Shown piece by piece: positions 5,395-33,976 of a stretch of DNA of 37,285 nt. Source of the stretch: a bacterium (GTDB lineage Bacteria; Bacteroidota; Ignavibacteria; UBA10030); NCBI GenBank assembly GCA_043803945.1, contig JAZDJN010000044.1:1-37285 (forward strand), given 5' to 3'. The position numbers and the translations under genes were made by a program. Each line of letters opens with the position of its first letter. Position 1 is the first letter of the stretch. The notes under the pieces are model-generated. The model worked only from the letters and a program-made list of their open reading frames with translations. It ran no database searches and was not told where the DNA came from.

Positions 5395-5545
5395 ACCGCA
5401 GATTACACTGATTACGAAGATTATCACAGATTAGCGTAATCGGCTGTCCACAAATCAGTAAGTATCAATCGAAACAGTTTAATCAGTGTACCACAAATCA
5501 GTGAGTATCGGTCATCAGTGGTCATCTGTGGTCTTCAGTGGTCCA
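5395..5545. repeat. Inverted array of ~9-bp repeats (acactgatt / aatcagtgt) overlapping the 3' end of the bEBP gene
   Basis: Left arm cgcagattacactgattacgaagattatcacagatt; right arm aatcagtgt...gtcatcagtggtcatctgtggtcttcagtgg. Confidence 0.65.
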
Positions 5546-8161
5546 TTGGCGGGAGAGATAGGCCCTGAGGACTTCATCGAGAATGGTGTGATACCGCTGG
5601 GGTAGATTCTTATACTTCGATTTCAGCGTAAGTTTCAATTCCTCAAGGGGAAGGTCAATCGGGATTCCCTCTACGACGTTTGCCAGATACTCTGAGAGTT
5701 TCTTTCTCACACGGTCATTGGTCTCGGCATCTTCAGATTTGGAGATTGCCCGTACGGTACGTTCATGATCCCAGAGGTTTTCAAAGAAAAACTGGAAACA
5801 AAGTCCGCGGAAGTATTCGGCAACCGTTCCGCGGTGCATTCCTCCAAGCTCTTCCGCAGTTTCCGAAATTGAACTCCGGGAGAATTTTTTCACACGGAGG
5901 GATTCCAGAATTTGATCGGCAAGATCGACCTGGCCCTTGATCGCATTGGCGATCTGCTCCGGCAGGTCACGCAGTTGAAGTAGTGTCCGTTTCTCCGACC
6001 TGGCAAAAATAACTGCCCGTTTGATCGTGCTCTCCAGTTCCCGCACATTCCCCGGCCAGCGATATTGAAGAAACGAATCCATCACCGTTGTAGAAAGCGA
6101 CAGTCCTGCAGCTTCTCGCCGGACAAAGAATTCAGCAAGGAGGGAGATGTCGGTTTTTCGATCGCGTAATGGGGGGAGTTCGACGCTGAAGACATTGAGG
6201 CGATAATAGAGATCCTCCCGGAACCGTTTCGCGTCCATGAGTTCTTTTACATTTTTATTGGTCGCCGCGATAATCCGGGTGTTCACCTTTTTTGTAACGT
6301 TCGACCCCACCCGTTCGAACTCTCCATATTGCACCACACGCAGCAGCTTCACCTGAAAGGATTCGCTCGTCTCGGCAATCTCATCAAGAAAAATCGTTCC
6401 CCCGTCTGCCGACTCGAATCGTCCCATCTTGTCTTTTATGGCTCCGGTGAATGAGCCTTTCTCGTGGCCGAAGAGCTCGCTTTCAAGCAATGACTCTGTC
6501 AACGCACCGCAATTCACTGCAATGAAAGCTTTCTGTTTTCGAGTGCTCAGGTTGTGAATGGCGTGAGCGACCAGTTCCTTCCCAGTCCCGCTTTCTCCAA
6601 GAATCAGAACATTCGCATCGCTCGATGAAAGTTTCTGGACGAGTGAGACGATCTCCTTCATCTTGCCGGAAGTGTGATAGATGAGGCCTTCAAACTCCGC
6701 CTTTTCATTCTGCTGCTCTACTTCCACCGCATCGTACTTCACAAGGTCGCTCACCTGTGCAGAGAGCGTCTTAATGTCCTGCTTATAGCGGCGAATCTCA
6801 TCGAGCAGTTCGGTCCCGCGGCCCGATTGATCCGGAGAGGAATGATTGAGAAGTTCTTTTTCGAGCGTTTGCAGCTTCAACTCTCTTGCCCGCAATTCTG
6901 ATTCGATAGAATTCTTTTCATGTTCGAGCAGTGAGACACGGTCGCGGGCACCGATGAAGTAATACGTAAGACCGCCTATCATCACGAACAGAACGACGAA
7001 CATCGGTTGGACCATAGGAAGCACAAGCCACGACGTTGCGAAGGCAGTGTGCGACACTGCAAGGTAAATCAGGACAACAATAACACTCCCCAAAAGTGCG
7101 GTGATCGTTTTCCAGCGAAGGAGAAGAATGGTACAGAGGGATCCCAGAAGGAGTGTAATTATTGATTCCAGCCAGAGAGGAAATCTCTGCAGGAATGATC
7201 CTTGAAGTCCATTATGGACGAATGTCGCATGCAATCCCAGAGAGGGAAATTGTTCGGTGAAGGGGGTGATATAGAATGGAACACCTCTTCCCTTTGCAAT
7301 TACGCCGACCAGAACTATTTTCCCCTGCAGGATCGAGAGATCAATTGTTGGAGTTAAGCCGTACTTCTGCAGCTCATAGGAGCGCATCACTTCAACACAG
7401 CGCAATTTTCGGAAGGAATCCAGAGATCCGGGGATGTTCAACGTAACGGTTCCGGAGTTATCGGGTGAGAGCTTCTTCACACCCTCAGAGGTTCTGATTG
7501 AGAGTATACCATCATCAAGAAAGAGATCGGAGCGCTGAGCTCCAAAGTAGATCCGCAGAACCTCTAATGCAAACGATGGGACCGCACCATTCCCATAGCG
7601 AAGATAAAGAGGGATCCGGTCAGAGCGTTCTTCTGCGAGGTTCACATGACCGATTCCCGCCGCCCTATGGACCAGTGAGTCGAGCGGTTTGAAGAGTGGG
7701 TTTCCCCATCTGCCGCGATCGAGCCCTTTTAAATAGGCCAGGCTCTCCAGTCCATCGGTATTTTTTAATTCCGTATCAGATACTTTTGAAAAATAGCAGG
7801 TTAGAACAGTTTTGCCGGATCGTTCAATCGTCGTTTGGAGAAGGTGATCGTACTCTGGAAACTGGAGGTTCGGTTCTCCGAAGAATGTCTCAATCCCAAT
7901 AGCACGCACATTGTTCTTGGTTAAGACATCGAGCAGCAATGCATAGTACGATCGGGGGAGAGGCCAATTTTTAAGCTTGGCAATATCATCCTCATCGAAA
8001 TAGAGCAGCACGATATTCGAATCGGCCGGTGCCTGACCACGAAGTTCATACCGCAATCCGGTGATTTCGTTTTCCAGCTTTGAGAAGGGGGAAGAGAGAA
8101 CAAGCGAGAGCAGTACAATGCCGATCACGACAGCGAAAGCAACGAAATATTTATGATTCAT
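5522..8161 (-). CDS. Membrane CHASE2-sensor / sigma54-dependent enhancer-binding protein fusion
   Basis: N-terminal TM; CHASE2-like [36 protein letters not shown] motifs; 3 TMs; coiled coil; Walker [24 protein letters not shown], Walker [16 protein letters not shown]. Start set at ATG 8161 because the longer ORF runs through the tRNA. Confidence 0.9.
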
Positions 8162-8179
8162 AAATTCTAGAAAGGTTAC

Positions 8180-8256
8180 TGGTGACCCCACCGTGACTCG
8201 AACACGGAACCTACAGCTTAGAAGGCTGTTGCTCTGTCCACTTGAGCTATGGGGCC
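8180..8256 (-). tRNA. tRNA-Arg (anticodon UCU), 77 nt, CCA encoded
   Basis: ggccccatagctcaagtggacagagcaacagcct-TCT-aagctgtaggttccgtgttcgagtcacggtggggtcacca; cloverleaf with GTTCGA T-loop. Confidence 0.95.
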
Positions 8257-8367
8257 AAACACTGATCTTCAGATCCCGACATCGTTTCACTCGTCGGGAT
8301 GCTCAAAACAACTTCCACTCGTAAACAACACTCGTGGGTTGTTTTGGCACTTGAGCTATGGGGCCAA
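8257..8367 (-). repeat. Duplicated tRNA 5' end followed by two hairpins (pseudo-tRNA or REP-like insertion)
   Basis: 20-bp direct repeat cacttgagctatggggccaa at 8239-8258 and 8348-8367; hairpins at 8273-8300 and 8304-8346. Confidence 0.8.
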
Positions 8368-8670: not shown

Positions 8671-9657
8671 TTATGAATCTTTCCAAAGAAATGGCAAACT
8701 CTTCCTTGTTTCTTTTGAAGCAAATAGCTTATCGTCACCATCCCAAACTAGCCGAACATTCCTGTCCTTCTCAAGGAAGTGCCCCATCTATGTTAGATCT
8801 TGAGGAAGTTTAGTCTCAACTACTAGTACAAGCACAGCATCAGGTGTGTTTTGTAGATAACGATACTCATACAGTTGGCTAATGCCAGTGCGGACTTGCA
8901 AACGAACATTATCAATGGTTGTAGATTTCATTTCAAACAAGTAAGGAACATTCTCTACTCTAGCTGCAAGGTCTATGAGTTGATTACAACGTGGTAGGAT
9001 ACCCATCTTTCTTATTCGATTAGCTACCAGGTTTACTAGCTTCCTATGTTGGTTGCTCGCGCGTTCCATCGCGGCATCGTTTCTCATAATGGAAATATAA
9101 TTTTGAGCTTTACTTGCTCGCATTGCAACCTCTCTGTACTCCTTCAAAGAACCGCTTTTTGGAAAAAGTGGCTCTTCATTCACATCGTACTCTACAGGCT
9201 CGATCAAACTACCAAAGTCTTCTGTAATAAGATAGCGCGGACCTCGTTTTTCAATTAGGTTAAGAGAACCAAGCCAACTCACAACAGTGCTGACACGCCG
9301 ATCCATCATAGATTCACCAACTGGTTGTGTCACTTCAGAAATAAAGCCTTCAAGTATCTCTTTTGTTACACCTCGAGGATGTAACTCAAAAAATGGAACG
9401 ACTCGTCTGAAAAGTCTTGAGTTGATTACAATCTCTTTAAGCATCTTGTTCTGTACAGCAGGGACAGCTGCTAGAAATCTTCTACCGAGGTCCGTCATTT
9501 CAGCATGATTGCGTGAATTAGAAATCAATCCAAGTGTTTCAGCTGCCAATCGATAATATCGCCCTTGACGGTCGACCTCTTTGTAGAGCCACTTAAGTAA
9601 ATAGGGAAGTATGTTGCAGTGTGGTGAAACTAAGGAAGGGCTAATTCTTCTTTCCAA
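8671..9657 (-). pseudogene. Winged-helix plus PD-(D/E)XK (QxxxY-type) restriction-like nuclease with an in-frame TAG and a probable 5' truncation
   Basis: RQGRYYRLAAETLGLI; IDL...LFEMKS...GISQLYEY; TAG at 8788-8790 followed in frame by 38 more codons; no convincing start or RBS. Confidence 0.7.
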
Positions 9658-9884
9658 AACTCTTCAGTGACGTTCAGGAAACGAACACCAATCATGGGAT
9701 CTTCGGGAAATGTCTGACCGCAGCCGCATTCATATTCTAAGTAAACAACTATTCCTTCCCCCTCAAGGAATCTTTCATCTCCTGTTTCATCTACAATCGA
9801 AACAACGCGAACACGCTGCCCGATTCGGAACGGAGCACCAAAAACATCTTTGGTTATACCAATTGAAGTGTCTCCTGTAGACAT
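9630..9884 (-). CDS. CarS-like small acidic SH3-fold protein (putative DNA-mimic antirepressor)
   Basis: DVFGAPFRIGQRVRVV...RFL..EGIVV...FPEDPMIGV...FWKEEL resembles Myxococcus CarS as I recall it; 16 D/E versus 7 K/R in 84 aa. Confidence 0.6.
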   Translation of the reverse strand: MSTGDTSIGITKDVFGAPFRIGQRVRVVSIVDETGDERFLEGEGIVVYLEYECGCGQTFPEDPMIGVRFLNVTEEFWKEELALP

Positions 9885-9891
9885 GGGAAGG

Positions 9892-10605
9892 CTACGTCCA
9901 ACTTTGTTCCAAGGCTTTGCTTTCACTCGCCTTTGAGTGGAGGTCTGACACTAATTCATAGCTCGAGAACTTGATTCTGCTATATATGCTTTTGAAAACT
10001 GATTGACCGGTTTTTGAATCAAATTCTCTCTTGCGGACGGAGAGAGAAACTATTCTAAATACAGAAAAGAACGCCTTGAAGTTTGTAAACTTCAACAAGG
10101 AGTTATTGATGTCCGTGGTGTTCTCAACTTCGATGAATTCCGATGGCATCTTGTTGTCGTCAAACCAGATCACGTCAACGGTTCGTGCTCGACGAACAAT
10201 GTCTTCGTAAGTAAAGGGATAGATCTCATCTACCGTGGTCAGCTCTCCTAGACGTTTGCCAAGAAAAAACTTGTTTCTATCCTGAGCGGGAACAAATGTG
10301 GCTTGGTTTCGAAGATTGCCCAACTCCACAAGCAATCCTTGATAGTAAGTATGGTCGCTTTCCGGTTTCGGTTTTCCACGTAGATCAGACGGCAGTATGT
10401 CTTTTGCTTCATGGAGTGCCCAAAGTCCTGGTCGAATCCTAAAGAAGTATTCTGTATTTTGAACAATTCTGTTTATTGATTTGAACGGAGTTTTGGTTTC
10501 CCACTTGACATCGGCGATCTTCAAAACTTCCTTGTACAGGTAACCCAATGTGGCATAGCCACCATTAGCCCTCATCACATCGATCACAACTTCACGTTGG
10601 TTCAT
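9892..10605 (-). CDS. N-terminal winged-HTH (HARE-HTH-like) plus PD-(D/E)XK restriction-endonuclease-like protein
   Basis: GGYATLGYLY...KTPFKSI...PGLWAL; HTYYQGLL...VDVIWF...IEVENTT; ATGA overlap with the upstream ORF. Confidence 0.7.
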   Translation of the reverse strand: MNQREVVIDVMRANGGYATLGYLYKEVLKIADVKWETKTPFKSINRIVQNTEYFFRIRPGLWALHEAKDILPSDLRGKPKPESDHTYYQGLLVELGNLRNQATFVPAQDRNKFFLGKRLGELTTVDEIYPFTYEDIVRRARTVDVIWFDDNKMPSEFIEVENTTDINNSLLKFTNFKAFFSVFRIVSLSVRKREFDSKTGQSVFKSIYSRIKFSSYELVSDLHSKASESKALEQSWT

Positions 10606-11042
10606 ATTTGAAAACCTTTGGCAGAAAGAAATACTACTTGATTGTTTGGCTTGAGAGCCCGAACCTCGTAATAGAACTTCTCATCATTCACATATCGTCC
10701 AAGTTCACGAATCAACGCATCGACATTATCGCGGACTGCTTTGTAAGCATTTATCAACTCTTCGTTGGAATCACTCAAAACAGCCTCGGGTGGCCGCAAA
10801 TGGAAAAAAAGCGCACCCGCGCCAACAAATGGTTCAATGTATCGGCGATACGTTCCCGGGATATGGCCCATCAACTCAGGCAGAAGTTGTTTCTTTCCCC
10901 CCGCCCACTTCAAGAAGAGGCCACCTTTCACAAGGATTTGCTTAGATGCTTCCACGGGTGAATAGCTCAAAGGAATTTGAGGTTTTACTACATCAGGTGT
11001 AGTCTCAATTTTATTGGAATACTTGTAGTGTGATCTCATCAT
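10602..11042 (-). pseudogene. dam: Truncated Dam-family (D12 class) DNA adenine methyltransferase
   Basis: FLKWAGGK, YIEPFVGAGALFF, SDSNEELINAY present; ends at 146 aa with no DPPY catalytic motif. Confidence 0.8.
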
Positions 11043-11198
11043 GATTCAAATACGGTTACAATAATATAATTGAAATCACCTGATCAAACAAGTCAGTTAA
11101 TATGCAAGCAACGGGAAGCTCCGACCCTCTACCACTTGAGTTCATTTCTGTGTACAATAGAATTGTCCATGCCCTCTCAACCTATGGGAGATGCTGCC

Positions 11199-11882
11199 AT
11201 GAAAATAGAATGCCCTCGCTGTCAAAAAATCCTGCCGGACGGCTTTTATGATCCCGATCGGACAACCATTCTTTGCCCCCATTGCGATTACACGTTTTTC
11301 TTTACCACCAGCGTCGATGTCGACGCTCTGAAAGACTACGAAGGGACATCTCCGCCTGATGGAATCAGCATCCAACGTTCACCTTCTGAATTTATCCTCA
11401 CGGCGTCAGCGCGACCCAAGTCGCTCGGACTTTTCTTGGTATCTCATATCGCATTAATAATCATTGCCGTGGTGTTTTATGACAAATACATGCCGGAAAC
11501 CGATTTGACGGATTCAAGCTGGTGGCTCTCTTTACTATCGTATGTATCCCTTTTATCTGGAACCTCCTTCTATGTTCTCTTCCGTTTCTGGGGTACCTAT
11601 GTATTCACCATTAAGCAGAATATGGCTGTACTGCGTCGGAAGCTGGGATGGTTTGGATACTCAGAAGAATTCCATTGGAGCAGCATTTCTGCAGTGTCAG
11701 AAGTATGGGGATATGATAAGGAATCGAAAGATTCAGATAACATTGTCCATTCTATCATGCTGAAAGGAAGAAAAACAATAACGTTTGGAGATTCTCTTAC
11801 CGAGGCTCAACGGGCATACATCATTATCACATTGCGAAAAATGTTGATACACCAACCTTCCAAAGCTCCTCCCAAACGCTGA
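11199..11882 (+). CDS. Membrane protein with an N-terminal Zn-ribbon
   Basis: CPRC...CPHC, two TM segments; GGAGA RBS before ATG 11199. Confidence 0.7.
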   Translation: MKIECPRCQKILPDGFYDPDRTTILCPHCDYTFFFTTSVDVDALKDYEGTSPPDGISIQRSPSEFILTASARPKSLGLFLVSHIALIIIAVVFYDKYMPETDLTDSSWWLSLLSYVSLLSGTSFYVLFRFWGTYVFTIKQNMAVLRRKLGWFGYSEEFHWSSISAVSEVWGYDKESKDSDNIVHSIMLKGRKTITFGDSLTEAQRAYIIITLRKMLIHQPSKAPPKR

Positions 11883-33619: not shown

Positions 33620-33976
33620 ATGCCCGGGGACATAAAAGAACGAACCTTAGATTTTGCAATCCGAATTGTTCGGTTGGCAGATAAAATGCCAAATTCTCAA
33701 GCTTCAATGATCATCACAAAACAATTGATTCGTTCGGGAACCTCAATCGGAGCCAACGTCGAGGAGGCAAATGCCGCACCAACGAGAAAAGACTTTGCGT
33801 ATCGATTGAATGTGGCTTTGTGTGAAGCGAGAGAAACCAAATATTGGCTCTCAATTATAAGGGCAGTTGGATACACAGCATCAGTGGAAGTAAACTCACT
33901 CTTCCAAGAATGCGAAGAGCTCTGTAAGATTTTAGGCGCAATTGTCAGTACTGCTCGTGGTAAACGAATACATTGA
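33620..33976 (+). CDS. Four-helix-bundle protein (23S rRNA IVS-like / TIGR02436 type)
   Basis: RTLDFA, KQLIRSGTSIGANVEEA, DF...A..EARETKYWL; strong AGGAGG RBS. Confidence 0.92.
   Translation: MPGDIKERTLDFAIRIVRLADKMPNSQASMIITKQLIRSGTSIGANVEEANAAPTRKDFAYRLNVALCEARETKYWLSIIRAVGYTASVEVNSLFQECEELCKILGAIVSTARGKRIH

Follow-up and report, generated by a model that had tools for sequence, protein, structure and literature searches.

The window analysed here, the whole stretch of 37,285 nucleotides, encodes an 84-aa protein that is a genuine homologue of CarS, the DNA-mimic antirepressor of Myxococcus xanthus, and belongs to the SH3_18 family. The recurring adjacency of this small gene and its relatives to restriction-type nucleases suggests that nucleases reading adenine-methylated DNA have a partner protein not described before, which probably acts as a brake on them. 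We propose, with a probability of roughly 45%, that the 84-aa protein is a CarS-type partner clamping the winged-helix reader of the neighbouring restriction-type nucleases. To our knowledge, no host-encoded partner of this kind has been described for type IIM/IV or Dam-linked restriction enzymes.

The small gene and its islet in the window

The features of the islet are listed in Table 1. The small gene starts at an ATG (9884-9882) preceded by a spacer reading CCTTCCC on the coding strand, which separates it from the TAG stop codon (9892-9894) of the gene for the 237-aa nuclease, nuc237. An alternative GTG start at 9926 would extend the protein to 98 aa, but the ATG is preferred since the closest homologue (P0002, 81 aa) agrees with it. 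The acidic 84-aa reading frame placed by the first-pass annotation 7 nt past an intact nuclease gene is thus found both in the minus-strand ORFs and in the sequence itself, and the protein has a pI of 4.23, with 16 D/E against 7 K/R.

Table 1. Features of the islet, with positions in the window
Feature	Positions	Strand	Evidence
3' remainder of the third nuclease gene, 34 conserved in-frame codons past the TAG	8686..8787	-	tblastn with the L002 and L004 homologues, alignment crosses the stop
Third nuclease gene, 289 aa, DUF7226 winged-helix and PD-ExK domain (D229...E242-M-K244), shortened	8788..9657	-	Pfam DUF7226 E 3.3e-10; alignment
Small gene, 84-aa CarS-family (SH3_18) protein	9630..9884	-	ORF; Pfam SH3_18; 2kss match; AF2 model
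7-nt spacer, nuclease stop codon to small-gene ATG	9885..9891	-	Direct sequence reading
nuc237, intact 237-aa restriction-type nuclease with putative HARE-HTH and NmeDI_C (PF27126)	9892..10605	-	ORF, homologues, alignment
Dam-family N6-adenine methyltransferase remnant, 146 aa	10602..11042	-	Pfam PF02086, TIGR00571, alignment with full-length relatives

The resemblance to CarS noted in the first reading was borne out by sequence and by fold. The SH3_18 model of Pfam (PF18354) matched the small protein with an E of 1.5e-9 and 38.1 bits (cut-off 25), and phmmer aligned query residues 18-97 with the CarS structure in the PDB (2kss_A) at an E of 1.4e-8, which reached 1.3e-11 when a 30-sequence profile was used. 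The AF2 model (pLDDT 80.5, pTM 0.67) is an all-beta SH3-like barrel, and the Foldseek comparison proposed in the first-pass annotation returned CarS1 (2kss) as the best PDB match (E 5.2e-3, probability 1.00, TM 0.52/0.59, 38% identity over 82 columns). No Foldseek match in the PDB reached an E of 1e-3, and the remaining matches were likewise SH3-like barrels. Searches of PADLOC, NCBIfam and PHROGs gave no match for the small protein, and neither a helix-turn-helix nor a metal-binding family was matched in Pfam or NCBIfam.

The neighbouring nuc237 is predicted from its sequence to be a restriction-type nuclease with a PD-(D/E)XK-type domain and conserved acidic catalytic residues. Among the matches listed, all 120 homologues, the window's own protein included, carry a precomputed PF27126 assignment, and the comparison with the NmeDI_C Atlas clusters gave a score of 0.98. 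In the family alignment D144, E159 and E161 are invariant, and no cysteine is. The HARE-HTH domain scored below the Pfam cut-off in the window's protein itself (E 0.077, 13.8 bits, cut-off 25.9) and was matched in 12 of 17 family members at E values up to 0.1, the best being 3.2e-6; besides, one Atlas cluster of relatives is named HTH HARE-type. The AF2 model is of moderate quality (pLDDT 66, with the N-terminal domain mostly below 50). Its top Foldseek matches are mostly PD-(D/E)XK proteins, led by BsaWI at an E of 4e-3, and are weak, none reaching 1e-3 or better. Sequence searches of the PDB with nuc237 and with the 289-aa protein gave nothing significant.

The small gene and nuc237 are the only intact genes of the islet, as had been observed in the first reading of the sequence. 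The Dam remnant covers positions 1-93 of the 253 positions of the PF02086 profile, keeping the FxGxG region and having lost the DPPY half, and it scores 104 bits against TIGR00571, under the cut-off of 114.85. The third nuclease gene, whose first 28 nt coincide with the end of the small gene and which leads to REase-like clusters in the Atlas, is ended prematurely by an in-frame TAG (8788-8790) in place of a near-invariant Trp. Recoding of this stop was considered and rejected, as the TAG replaces Trp and all other ORFs of the window are normal under table 11. The DpnII family (PF04556) had no Pfam match in the window, and scans of the islet for repeats and promoters found no flanking repeats. 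The absence of carotenoid and CarA/CarH genes also holds: a scan of the window's 32 ORFs that are 90 aa or longer found no carotenoid, MerR/B12-binding, CarA/CarH, carQR, ECF sigma or DUF1109 anti-sigma genes.

Nuclease neighbours of related small genes

Homologues of the small gene were examined at 51 loci drawn from genome contigs, adjacency being defined as within 600 nt, counted from the small-gene side. A nuc237 homologue was found at this distance in 18 loci and a DpnI-family gene in 22, and the loci belong to environmental Verrucomicrobiota, Acidobacteriota, Ignavibacteriota, Bacteroidota and others. The DpnI-family neighbours carry both PF06044 and PF17726 (6/6 representatives scanned). 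A DUF7226 nuclease, i.e., a relative of the third nuclease of the window, was present in 17 of the 51 loci. Judging from their sequences, the three partner families are alike in having a winged-helix-type domain joined to a PD-(D/E)XK domain. The neighbourhood analysis suggested in the first-pass annotation thus revealed a strong enrichment of the small gene beside winged-helix PD-(D/E)XK nucleases. In available sections of the literature, the winged helix of DpnI is established by experiment as an m6A sensor (PMC11037411), and a role in reading modified bases has been proposed for HARE-HTH (PMC4738411).

The patchiness of the loci, their mobile-looking surroundings and the variable gene orientation might be taken to indicate that an unrelated small gene has hitch-hiked by chance in variable islands. 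We consider this very unlikely, given that in 40 of the 51 loci, under at least ten phylum-level taxon names, a nuclease of the DpnI family or of the HARE-HTH/NmeDI_C type lies no more than 600 nt away, and that between related loci no DNA but the small gene can still be aligned, yet this gene always lies beside such a nuclease.

Intergenic gaps are mostly below 130 nt and some genes overlap. Of the nuc237 loci, 11 have the small gene downstream of the nuclease gene and on its strand, the other 7 have the two genes converging, and the DpnI loci show four gene arrangements relative to it. In 16 loci (10 with nuc237 and 6 with DpnI) the small gene stands between one of these nucleases and the DUF7226 gene. 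This position, together with the overlap of the small-gene end and the third nuclease start in the window, would suit a non-inhibitory accessory subunit, acting as an adaptor, an activator or a specificity factor, that would link or tune nucleases, e.g., a DUF7226 nuclease with a DpnI-type or HARE-HTH-type one, or that relieves winged-helix autoinhibition, and a shared adaptor would also be expected to present one invariant surface to every partner type. On the other hand, the third nuclease is absent from 16 DpnI-linked and 8 nuc237-linked loci, the occurrence of the domain in polyvalent proteins of mobile elements suits an inhibitor better, and CarS, the only characterised relative, competitively blocks a DNA-binding helix (PMC2926617, available sections). 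We therefore regard an accessory subunit as unlikely.

The small protein did not co-diverge with its partner type. In the small-protein tree, DpnI-linked and nuc237-linked copies are mixed, with 12 changes each, and sister groups with mixed partners are well supported (L002/L003 at 99/96; L015/L018/L023 at 99/98). No column of the small-protein alignment separates the DpnI-linked from the nuc237-linked copies, and co-divergence was therefore rejected. The swapping of partners around closely related small genes, with the same conserved surface whichever nuclease adjoins, could mean that the protein binds a common third party (an anti-restriction protein of an invader, a phage or host Dam, or another DNA-binding protein) as a decoy, sensor or guard for restriction linked to adenine methylation. 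Copies with no nuclease neighbour do exist: in five loci (L001, L035, L036, L038 and L047), where the small gene is complete and has flanking sequence on both sides, no nuclease of these types lies within 600 nt. However, the neighbourhoods offer no recurrent third gene as a candidate, only clusters 1-4 occurring in at least eight loci, and the close spacing or overlap with the nuclease genes points to co-expression. To a third-party target we give little credence.

The remnant in the window is one of five Dam remnants among the loci, which have five different truncation points, whereas nuclease and small gene are whole. The first-pass annotation had the pair kept without a methylase. Its retention despite Dam decay is confirmed, but a remnant is still present in the window and a full-length Dam adjoins the module in three loci (L003, L014 and L030; 235-258 bits). 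The same annotation had offered a toxin-antitoxin interpretation. Were the pair a toxin-antitoxin or abortive-infection module of the classical kind, the nuclease would be a toxin that cuts unmethylated sites of its own host, and the small protein would be a labile antitoxin; the cell would die on losing the latter, e.g., upon phage shut-off. The persistence of nuclease and small gene beyond the methylase would agree with such a module, as would the tight 7-nt coupling in the window and the defence-island-like neighbours of some loci (MazF in L001, Abi_2 in L048 and NERD in L013). Nevertheless, the varying orientation in the nuc237 loci departs from the usual antitoxin-first operon and, as far as the genes alone tell, from the fixed order of two-gene type II toxin-antitoxin operons. 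Besides, 22 loci pair the small gene with DpnI-type enzymes. DpnI cuts methylated DNA only, so that enzymes of this type should be harmless to a host that has no Dam methylation. In L048 an intact nuclease lies beside a small gene cut to its last 31 codons, and the lack of a PADLOC match for the small protein also speaks against the idea. These features weaken the strict form of the toxin-antitoxin idea, which we now regard as quite improbable.

GATC occurs 247 times in the window against 269 expected, and the observed/expected ratio of 0.86-0.92 (window and loci) indicates no depletion and is uninformative on specificity. With GATC not depleted, an unchecked GATC cutter would be intolerable, which fits any brake, or a second Dam elsewhere.

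The docking surface and the proposed clamp

Experiments on CarS have identified L63, L75, F77, the D52/D53 pair and E79/E80 as essential (PMC2926617, available sections). We mapped the pocket residues onto the small protein through the phmmer alignment with 2kss. In the 98-aa numbering, L63 corresponds to M78, F77 to W91 and E79/E80 to E93/E94. M78, W91 and E94 are invariant in the family, E93 is conserved in at least 90% of it, and all are among the most conserved columns, while L75 aligns to a gap beside the invariant F90. The residues that dock the CarA recognition helix in CarS (L63, F77 and E79/E80) therefore have conserved counterparts, which suggests, from the alignment, that the conserved surface of the small protein matches the helix-docking pocket of CarS. 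The likeness extends to the whole domain, both proteins being SH3-like barrels and the window copy small and acidic, and to the candidate partners, which also appear to have winged-helix-type domains. In contrast with CarS, which is encoded in a carQRS operon and acts on the MerR-type repressors of carotenogenesis CarA and CarH, there is no carQRS operon in the window, the neighbours are nucleases and not repressors, and some family members are basic (core pI above 7.5 in 5 of 30).

A further difference concerns the D52/D53 pair, which falls on E66/C67, inside a C-G-C-G-Q loop (C67-G-C69-G-Q71), the acidic pair not being kept in the family. The CGCG motif noticed in the first reading is hence present and nearly invariant, with C67 in 44 and C69 in 46 of the 47 locus-derived sequences. 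This conservation, and the position of the loop at an essential CarS site beside the docking pocket, would be compatible with a metal or redox switch (a bridging metal site or a disulfide) that ties the activity of the protein to the state of the cell, and such a switch could be combined with any other reading. Two cysteines are nevertheless insufficient for a full site on a monomer, and no His is invariant in the family. The partners have no conserved Cys in common, as nuc237 has none that is invariant and the DpnI-like proteins have a Cys4 cluster, and no metal-binding family was matched. Such a switch is in our opinion an outside chance.

Considering the homology, the pocket and the neighbourhoods, we return to the clamp as the preferred reading. 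By analogy with CarS, the partner nucleases, each with a winged-helix reader and a PD-(D/E)XK cleavage domain and linked to Dam-family adenine methylation, probably at GATC, would be bound by the small protein through their winged-helix domain. In the window the partner would be nuc237, whose gene ends 7 nt before the small gene, and perhaps the downstream DUF7226 nuclease as well. The predicted pocket consists of the solvent-exposed hydrophobic residues M78, F90 and W91, flanked by D46, E89, E93 and E94 and by the C-G-C-G-Q loop, and it would dock on the recognition helix of the nuclease winged-helix domain in competition with DNA. The nuclease would thereby be restrained or gated, and released once the small protein is driven off by a high-affinity substrate or by a signal. 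A brake of this sort could be the reason why nuclease and small gene remain intact after the decay of Dam.

Several observations do not sit easily with the clamp. One conserved surface would have to fit two winged-helix domains with no Pfam similarity (the separate models PF05066 and PF17726), and the same surface facing dissimilar partner domains could indicate a common third target. The small protein carries no mark of its partner type, as seen in the mixed tree and the lack of a distinguishing column. Overall acidity is not shared by the whole family, and the D52/D53 pair is replaced. A DpnI-type enzyme would need no brake in a host without Dam methylation. Finally, in L048 the nuclease is intact although the small gene is truncated, and five loci have no nuclease of these types nearby.

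Known systems and the breadth of the SH3_18 family

Ocr and ArdA, which are directed against type I enzymes, imitate B-DNA over long stretches. The logic proposed here, a small acidic protein on the DNA-binding surface of an enzyme, resembles that of these and other restriction-enzyme inhibitors, but there is no relation in sequence or fold to Ocr and ArdA, and most copies of the small gene are host-encoded, next to the nuclease itself. A second parallel is found in the DpnI/DpnII cassettes of Streptococcus pneumoniae. Pneumococcal DpnI is accompanied by dpnD, a small accessory gene of unknown role, to which the small gene can be likened by description only. In these cassettes and in dam/drg of Neisseria, a Dam with its nuclease is exchanged at one locus for a DpnI-family m6A-dependent nuclease, as among our loci, and the replacement of dam by drg is documented (PMC516771 and PMC4269198, available sections). 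The small gene here encodes an SH3_18 protein, and, unlike in the DpnI/DpnII cassettes, the nuclease paired with Dam is of the HARE-HTH/NmeDI_C type and not of the DpnII family. The C proteins of type II restriction-modification systems, which are helix-turn-helix transcription factors binding operators, are likewise encoded by small genes tightly linked to the restriction gene, and the small protein may similarly delay or limit nuclease activity. It differs from them in its modelled SH3-like fold without a helix-turn-helix, so that any control it exerts would be at the level of protein and not of transcription.

The family is broad, with 240 representative clusters at an E of 1e-3 or better in many phyla. 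The same search found the SH3_18 domain inside three giant polyvalent proteins, together with ART-PolyVal, Kinase-PolyVal, InPase, SprT and 2H-phosphoesterase domains, a type of mobile-element protein in which anti-restriction modules also occur; the accessible text of the polyvalent-protein paper (PMC5512222) mentions neither CarS nor SH3 domains ('SH3' with 0 occurrences). A targeted search for longer, fused relatives yielded none, which is weak evidence. Phage-like or integrase contexts surround the small gene in L035, L038 and L047, and this setting, with the polyvalent proteins, is the one expected for inhibitors of host nucleases. In tblastn searches of 50,697 phage and 72,556 plasmid records the small protein had no match, and Foldseek against a viral library returned weak, uncharacterised SH3-like phage proteins, none at an E of 1e-3 or better.

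A wider interpretation can be proposed, to which we attach considerable doubt: SH3_18 might be a widespread, undescribed class of proteins that mimic GATC or m6A-GATC DNA and clamp winged-helix readers. Host copies would gate DpnI-type and HARE-HTH-type enzymes, permitting methylase loss and cassette swaps, the copies in polyvalent proteins and phages would be anti-restriction factors, and CarS would have been exapted from this pool of conflict systems rather than having arisen de novo. If true, this would mean that the type IIM/IV and Dam-linked restriction enzymes have a regulator or inhibitor working at the level of protein, provide a compact inhibitor of DpnI-like m6A readers, and give a handle on bacterial switching between methylating and methyl-restricting states. 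Our literature search for a link between SH3_18 or CarS-like proteins and restriction found nothing relevant. In the available part of PMC9304148, CarS is said to have no homologues beyond the Myxococcales and to look like a de novo gene; the presence of the SH3_18 family across many phyla, set against this published restriction, bears on the origin of CarS.

Composition of the islet

The islet has a GC content of 0.41-0.44, somewhat below most of the window, and lies among ordinary chromosomal genes (sigma-54 activator, seryl-tRNA synthetase, dapB, aspartokinase, and fructose-bisphosphatase). The first-pass annotation described an acidic 84-aa protein starting 7 nt after an intact HTH-PD-(D/E)XK gene, with no other intact gene in the islet, and this was confirmed: the TAG of the upstream gene (nuc237, 237 aa) and the small-gene ATG are exactly 7 nt apart, and the small protein has a pI of 4.23 (16 D/E vs 7 K/R). 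An alternative GTG start at 9926 would give 98 aa, the form by which residues are numbered here. Since the Dam-type methyltransferase fragment keeps its FxGxG region and misses the DPPY half, and a near-invariant Trp codon of the third nuclease gene has become a TAG, only nuc237 and the small gene are intact. This TAG suggests a recent nonsense mutation, because 34 conserved codons run on in frame past it.

A listed ORF overruns the neighbouring tRNA gene, so its true start is probably an internal Met (MNHKYF...). The divergent 270-aa protein beside the methylase remnant has weak zinc-ribbon matches and apparent hydrophobic segments, and no homologue of it was found in the related loci.

Features of the window and of related loci (L numbers)
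Feature	Position	Strand	Remark
Four consecutive ORFs, 237/679/311/271 aa	363-5159	-	no Pfam match at E 1e-5 or better
Listed ORF	5522-8290		spans tRNA-Arg(TCT)
tRNA-Arg(TCT)	8180-8256	-	just downstream of islet, same strand
Perfect 20-nt repeat	8239-8258 and 8348-8367		tRNA-Arg 5' part; 109 nt apart
Islet	8686-11042	-	four genes head to tail
Premature TAG	8788-8790		third nuclease
Third nuclease gene, 289 aa	8788-9657	-	5' start overlaps small-gene end
Small gene, 84 aa	9630-9884	-	ORF call
nuc237, 237 aa	9892-10605	-	ORF call
Dam-type methyltransferase fragment, 146 aa	10602-11042	-	ORF call
270-aa protein	11070-11882	+	
PF05635 '23S rRNA-intervening sequence protein' family gene	33620-33976	+	between two ABC-transporter genes
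Methyltransferase-nuc237 fusion	L014:4190-6016		single 608-aa ORF
Small gene	L023:2146-2394		in-frame stop at Q of CGCGQ
Small gene	L046:6001-6193		frameshifted
Small gene	L048:629-721		last 31 codons only
Phage-like or mobile region	L035:2622-9452		HNH endonuclease, transposase, DNA polymerase exonuclease subunit, phrog_35913, metallophosphoesterase
ORF with SH3_18	L047:165-2558		SH3_18 in C-terminal, phrog_625 in N-terminal part; integrase adjoins

Relationship of the small protein to CarS

The resemblance to the Myxococcus antirepressor CarS, proposed in the first-pass annotation, was borne out. The small protein matches Pfam SH3_18 ('CarS bacterial SH3 domain') with 38.1 bits (cut-off 25), phmmer against all PDB sequences retrieved CarS (2kss, E 1.4e-8) over nearly the whole domain, and a 30-homologue profile reached 2kss at E 1.3e-11. 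A Foldseek search of the AlphaFold2 model (pLDDT 80.5) against the PDB gave CarS1 as best match (E 5.2e-3, TM 0.52/0.59, 38% identity), with none at E 1e-3 and SH3-like barrels as the remaining matches. Both sequence and predicted fold place the small protein in the SH3_18/CarS family.

When the small protein is aligned with 2kss by phmmer, M78, W91, and E93/E94 fall opposite the CarS residues L63, F77, and E79/E80; these positions are invariant or nearly so across the small-protein family. Besides, D52/D53 correspond to E66/C67 within a near-invariant C-G-C-G-Q loop, a feature of the small-protein family that CarS lacks. The cysteines are present in 44/47 (C67) and 46/47 (C69) locus-derived sequences, and a metal or redox switch formed by this loop is one rival explanation for the function of the protein.

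In contrast to CarS, which acts in a setting of carQRS, CarA/CarH, and carotenoid genes, the small protein stands outside that system, since no such context was found among the 32 window ORFs of at least 90 aa; the first-pass annotation likewise noted no carotenoid or CarA/CarH genes. The family is large and extends outside the Myxococcales: 115 other clusters were found at the 90% identity level, and 240 representative clusters matched with E 1e-3 or better, all named only 'hypothetical protein' in their sources. This contrasts with the published account of CarS, passages of which state that homologues beyond the Myxococcales are absent and liken CarS to a de novo gene (PMC9304148). An association of SH3_18, PF18354, or CarS-like proteins with restriction or polyvalent proteins was not found in the literature covered; most subscription journals lay outside it, and absence is unproven.

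Nuclease partners, their exchange and decay

One genome per species was scanned, which gave 51 loci, from Verrucomicrobiota, Acidobacteriota, Ignavibacteriota, Bacteroidota, Lentisphaerota, Planctomycetota, Omnitrophota, Zixibacteria, Chloroflexota, Thermodesulfobacteriota, and others. An association with nucleases was recovered: a nuc237 homologue lies no more than 600 nt from the small gene in 18/51 loci and a DpnI-family gene in 22/51, one locus has the third nuclease alone at this distance, and ten have none of these (including three short, doubtful matches, L049-L051, and two at contig ends). The third nuclease also occurs in 17/51 loci. Distances are short, with overlap in some; nuc237 precedes the small gene on the same strand in 11 loci and is convergent with it in 7, and the DpnI-family genes are convergent in 9 loci, divergent in 8, and co-oriented in 5. 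An IS200-like Y1 transposase (PF01797 in 3/3 scanned) adjoins the small gene in eight loci, mostly of Acidobacteriota (L009, L016, L022, L024, L025, L027, L028, and L030), often between it and a truncated third-nuclease gene.

Each of the three partner families is predicted to join a winged-helix-type DNA reader to a PD-(D/E)XK cutter. The nuc237 N-terminus matches HARE-HTH in 12/17 family members (best E 3.2e-6), the window copy by itself being sub-threshold, and the ESM Atlas, like the protein collection, assigns PF27126 NmeDI_C, a domain of type II restriction enzymes, to the C-terminal part. D144, E159, and E161 are invariant in the family alignment; a D...ExE triad is the BamHI-type form of the PD-(D/E)XK site. 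The structure model is of only moderate quality, and the Foldseek matches to it were weak and mostly PD-(D/E)XK proteins. In the third nuclease, a winged-helix-like domain (DUF7226) accompanies a canonical nuclease motif, D229...E242-M-K244, and PF06044 and PF17726 were found in 6/6 DpnI-family representatives scanned.

A full-length Dam-family methylase adjoins the module in only 3/18 nuc237 loci (L003, L030, and L014), in L014 fused with the HARE-HTH/NmeDI_C nuclease. N-terminally extended nuclease ORFs were also observed in L012 (317 aa) and L017 (350 aa). The five methylase remnants (window, L004, L006, L028, and L033) each end at a different point, so the methylase has been lost several times, with nuc237 and the small gene staying whole. 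In the small-protein tree, DpnI-linked and nuc237-linked copies are interleaved: L002 (DpnI) and L003 (Dam and nuc237) are sisters (support 99/96), and L015 and L018 (DpnI) group with L023 (nuc237; support 99/98). Between such relatives, only the small gene is alignable as DNA. This switching resembles the DpnI/DpnII replacement in pneumococcus and the dam/drg replacement in Neisseria, the latter described in PMC516771 and PMC4269198.

Decay of the small gene and the nuclease is partly coupled. Both are damaged in L023 and L046; L032 and L044 have an intact small gene and a fragmented nuclease, and in L048 the nuclease is intact and adjoins, together with an Abi_2 gene, a remnant of the small gene. 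A strict toxin-antitoxin pair is a rival explanation for the small gene and its nuclease.

A putative clamp on the reader domain

The winged helix of DpnI is established as a sensor of m6A-GATC (PMC11037411), and HARE-HTH is a proposed modified-base reader in N6A restriction-modification systems (PMC4738411). CarS accommodates a recognition helix in a pocket that is hydrophobic and lined with acidic residues (PMC2926617). Considering that the partners have winged-helix readers, that CarS seats such a helix, and that the region matching the CarS docking pocket is the most conserved part of the small-protein family, we infer as the likeliest mechanism that the small protein clamps the reader domain of the adjoining nuclease, whose cutting would thereby be limited or gated. 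A CarS-type helix clamp may have been reused in restriction systems.

The main difficulties are that a single invariant surface must fit two reader domains of different Pfam models, that 5/30 family members have a core pI > 7.5, and that L048 keeps the nuclease although its small gene is not intact. Moreover, a brake should be needless for DpnI-type enzymes in unmethylated hosts. A rival explanation is that the small protein serves as an adaptor or activator.

No alignment column distinguishes DpnI-linked from nuc237-linked small proteins, and both groups conserve the same surface. Action on a common third-party target is a further alternative to the clamp. The SH3_18 domain lies inside three giant polyvalent-type proteins, with ART-PolyVal and InPase (P0146, 1320 aa), SprT and 2H-phosphoesterase/Acb1-like (P0200, 1078 aa), or Kinase-PolyVal (P0229, 1954 aa). 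Small-gene copies without a nuclease neighbour also occur in phage-like or mobile/integrase-bearing regions (L035, L038, and L047), in L038 with a pyrophosphatase and DUF1848.
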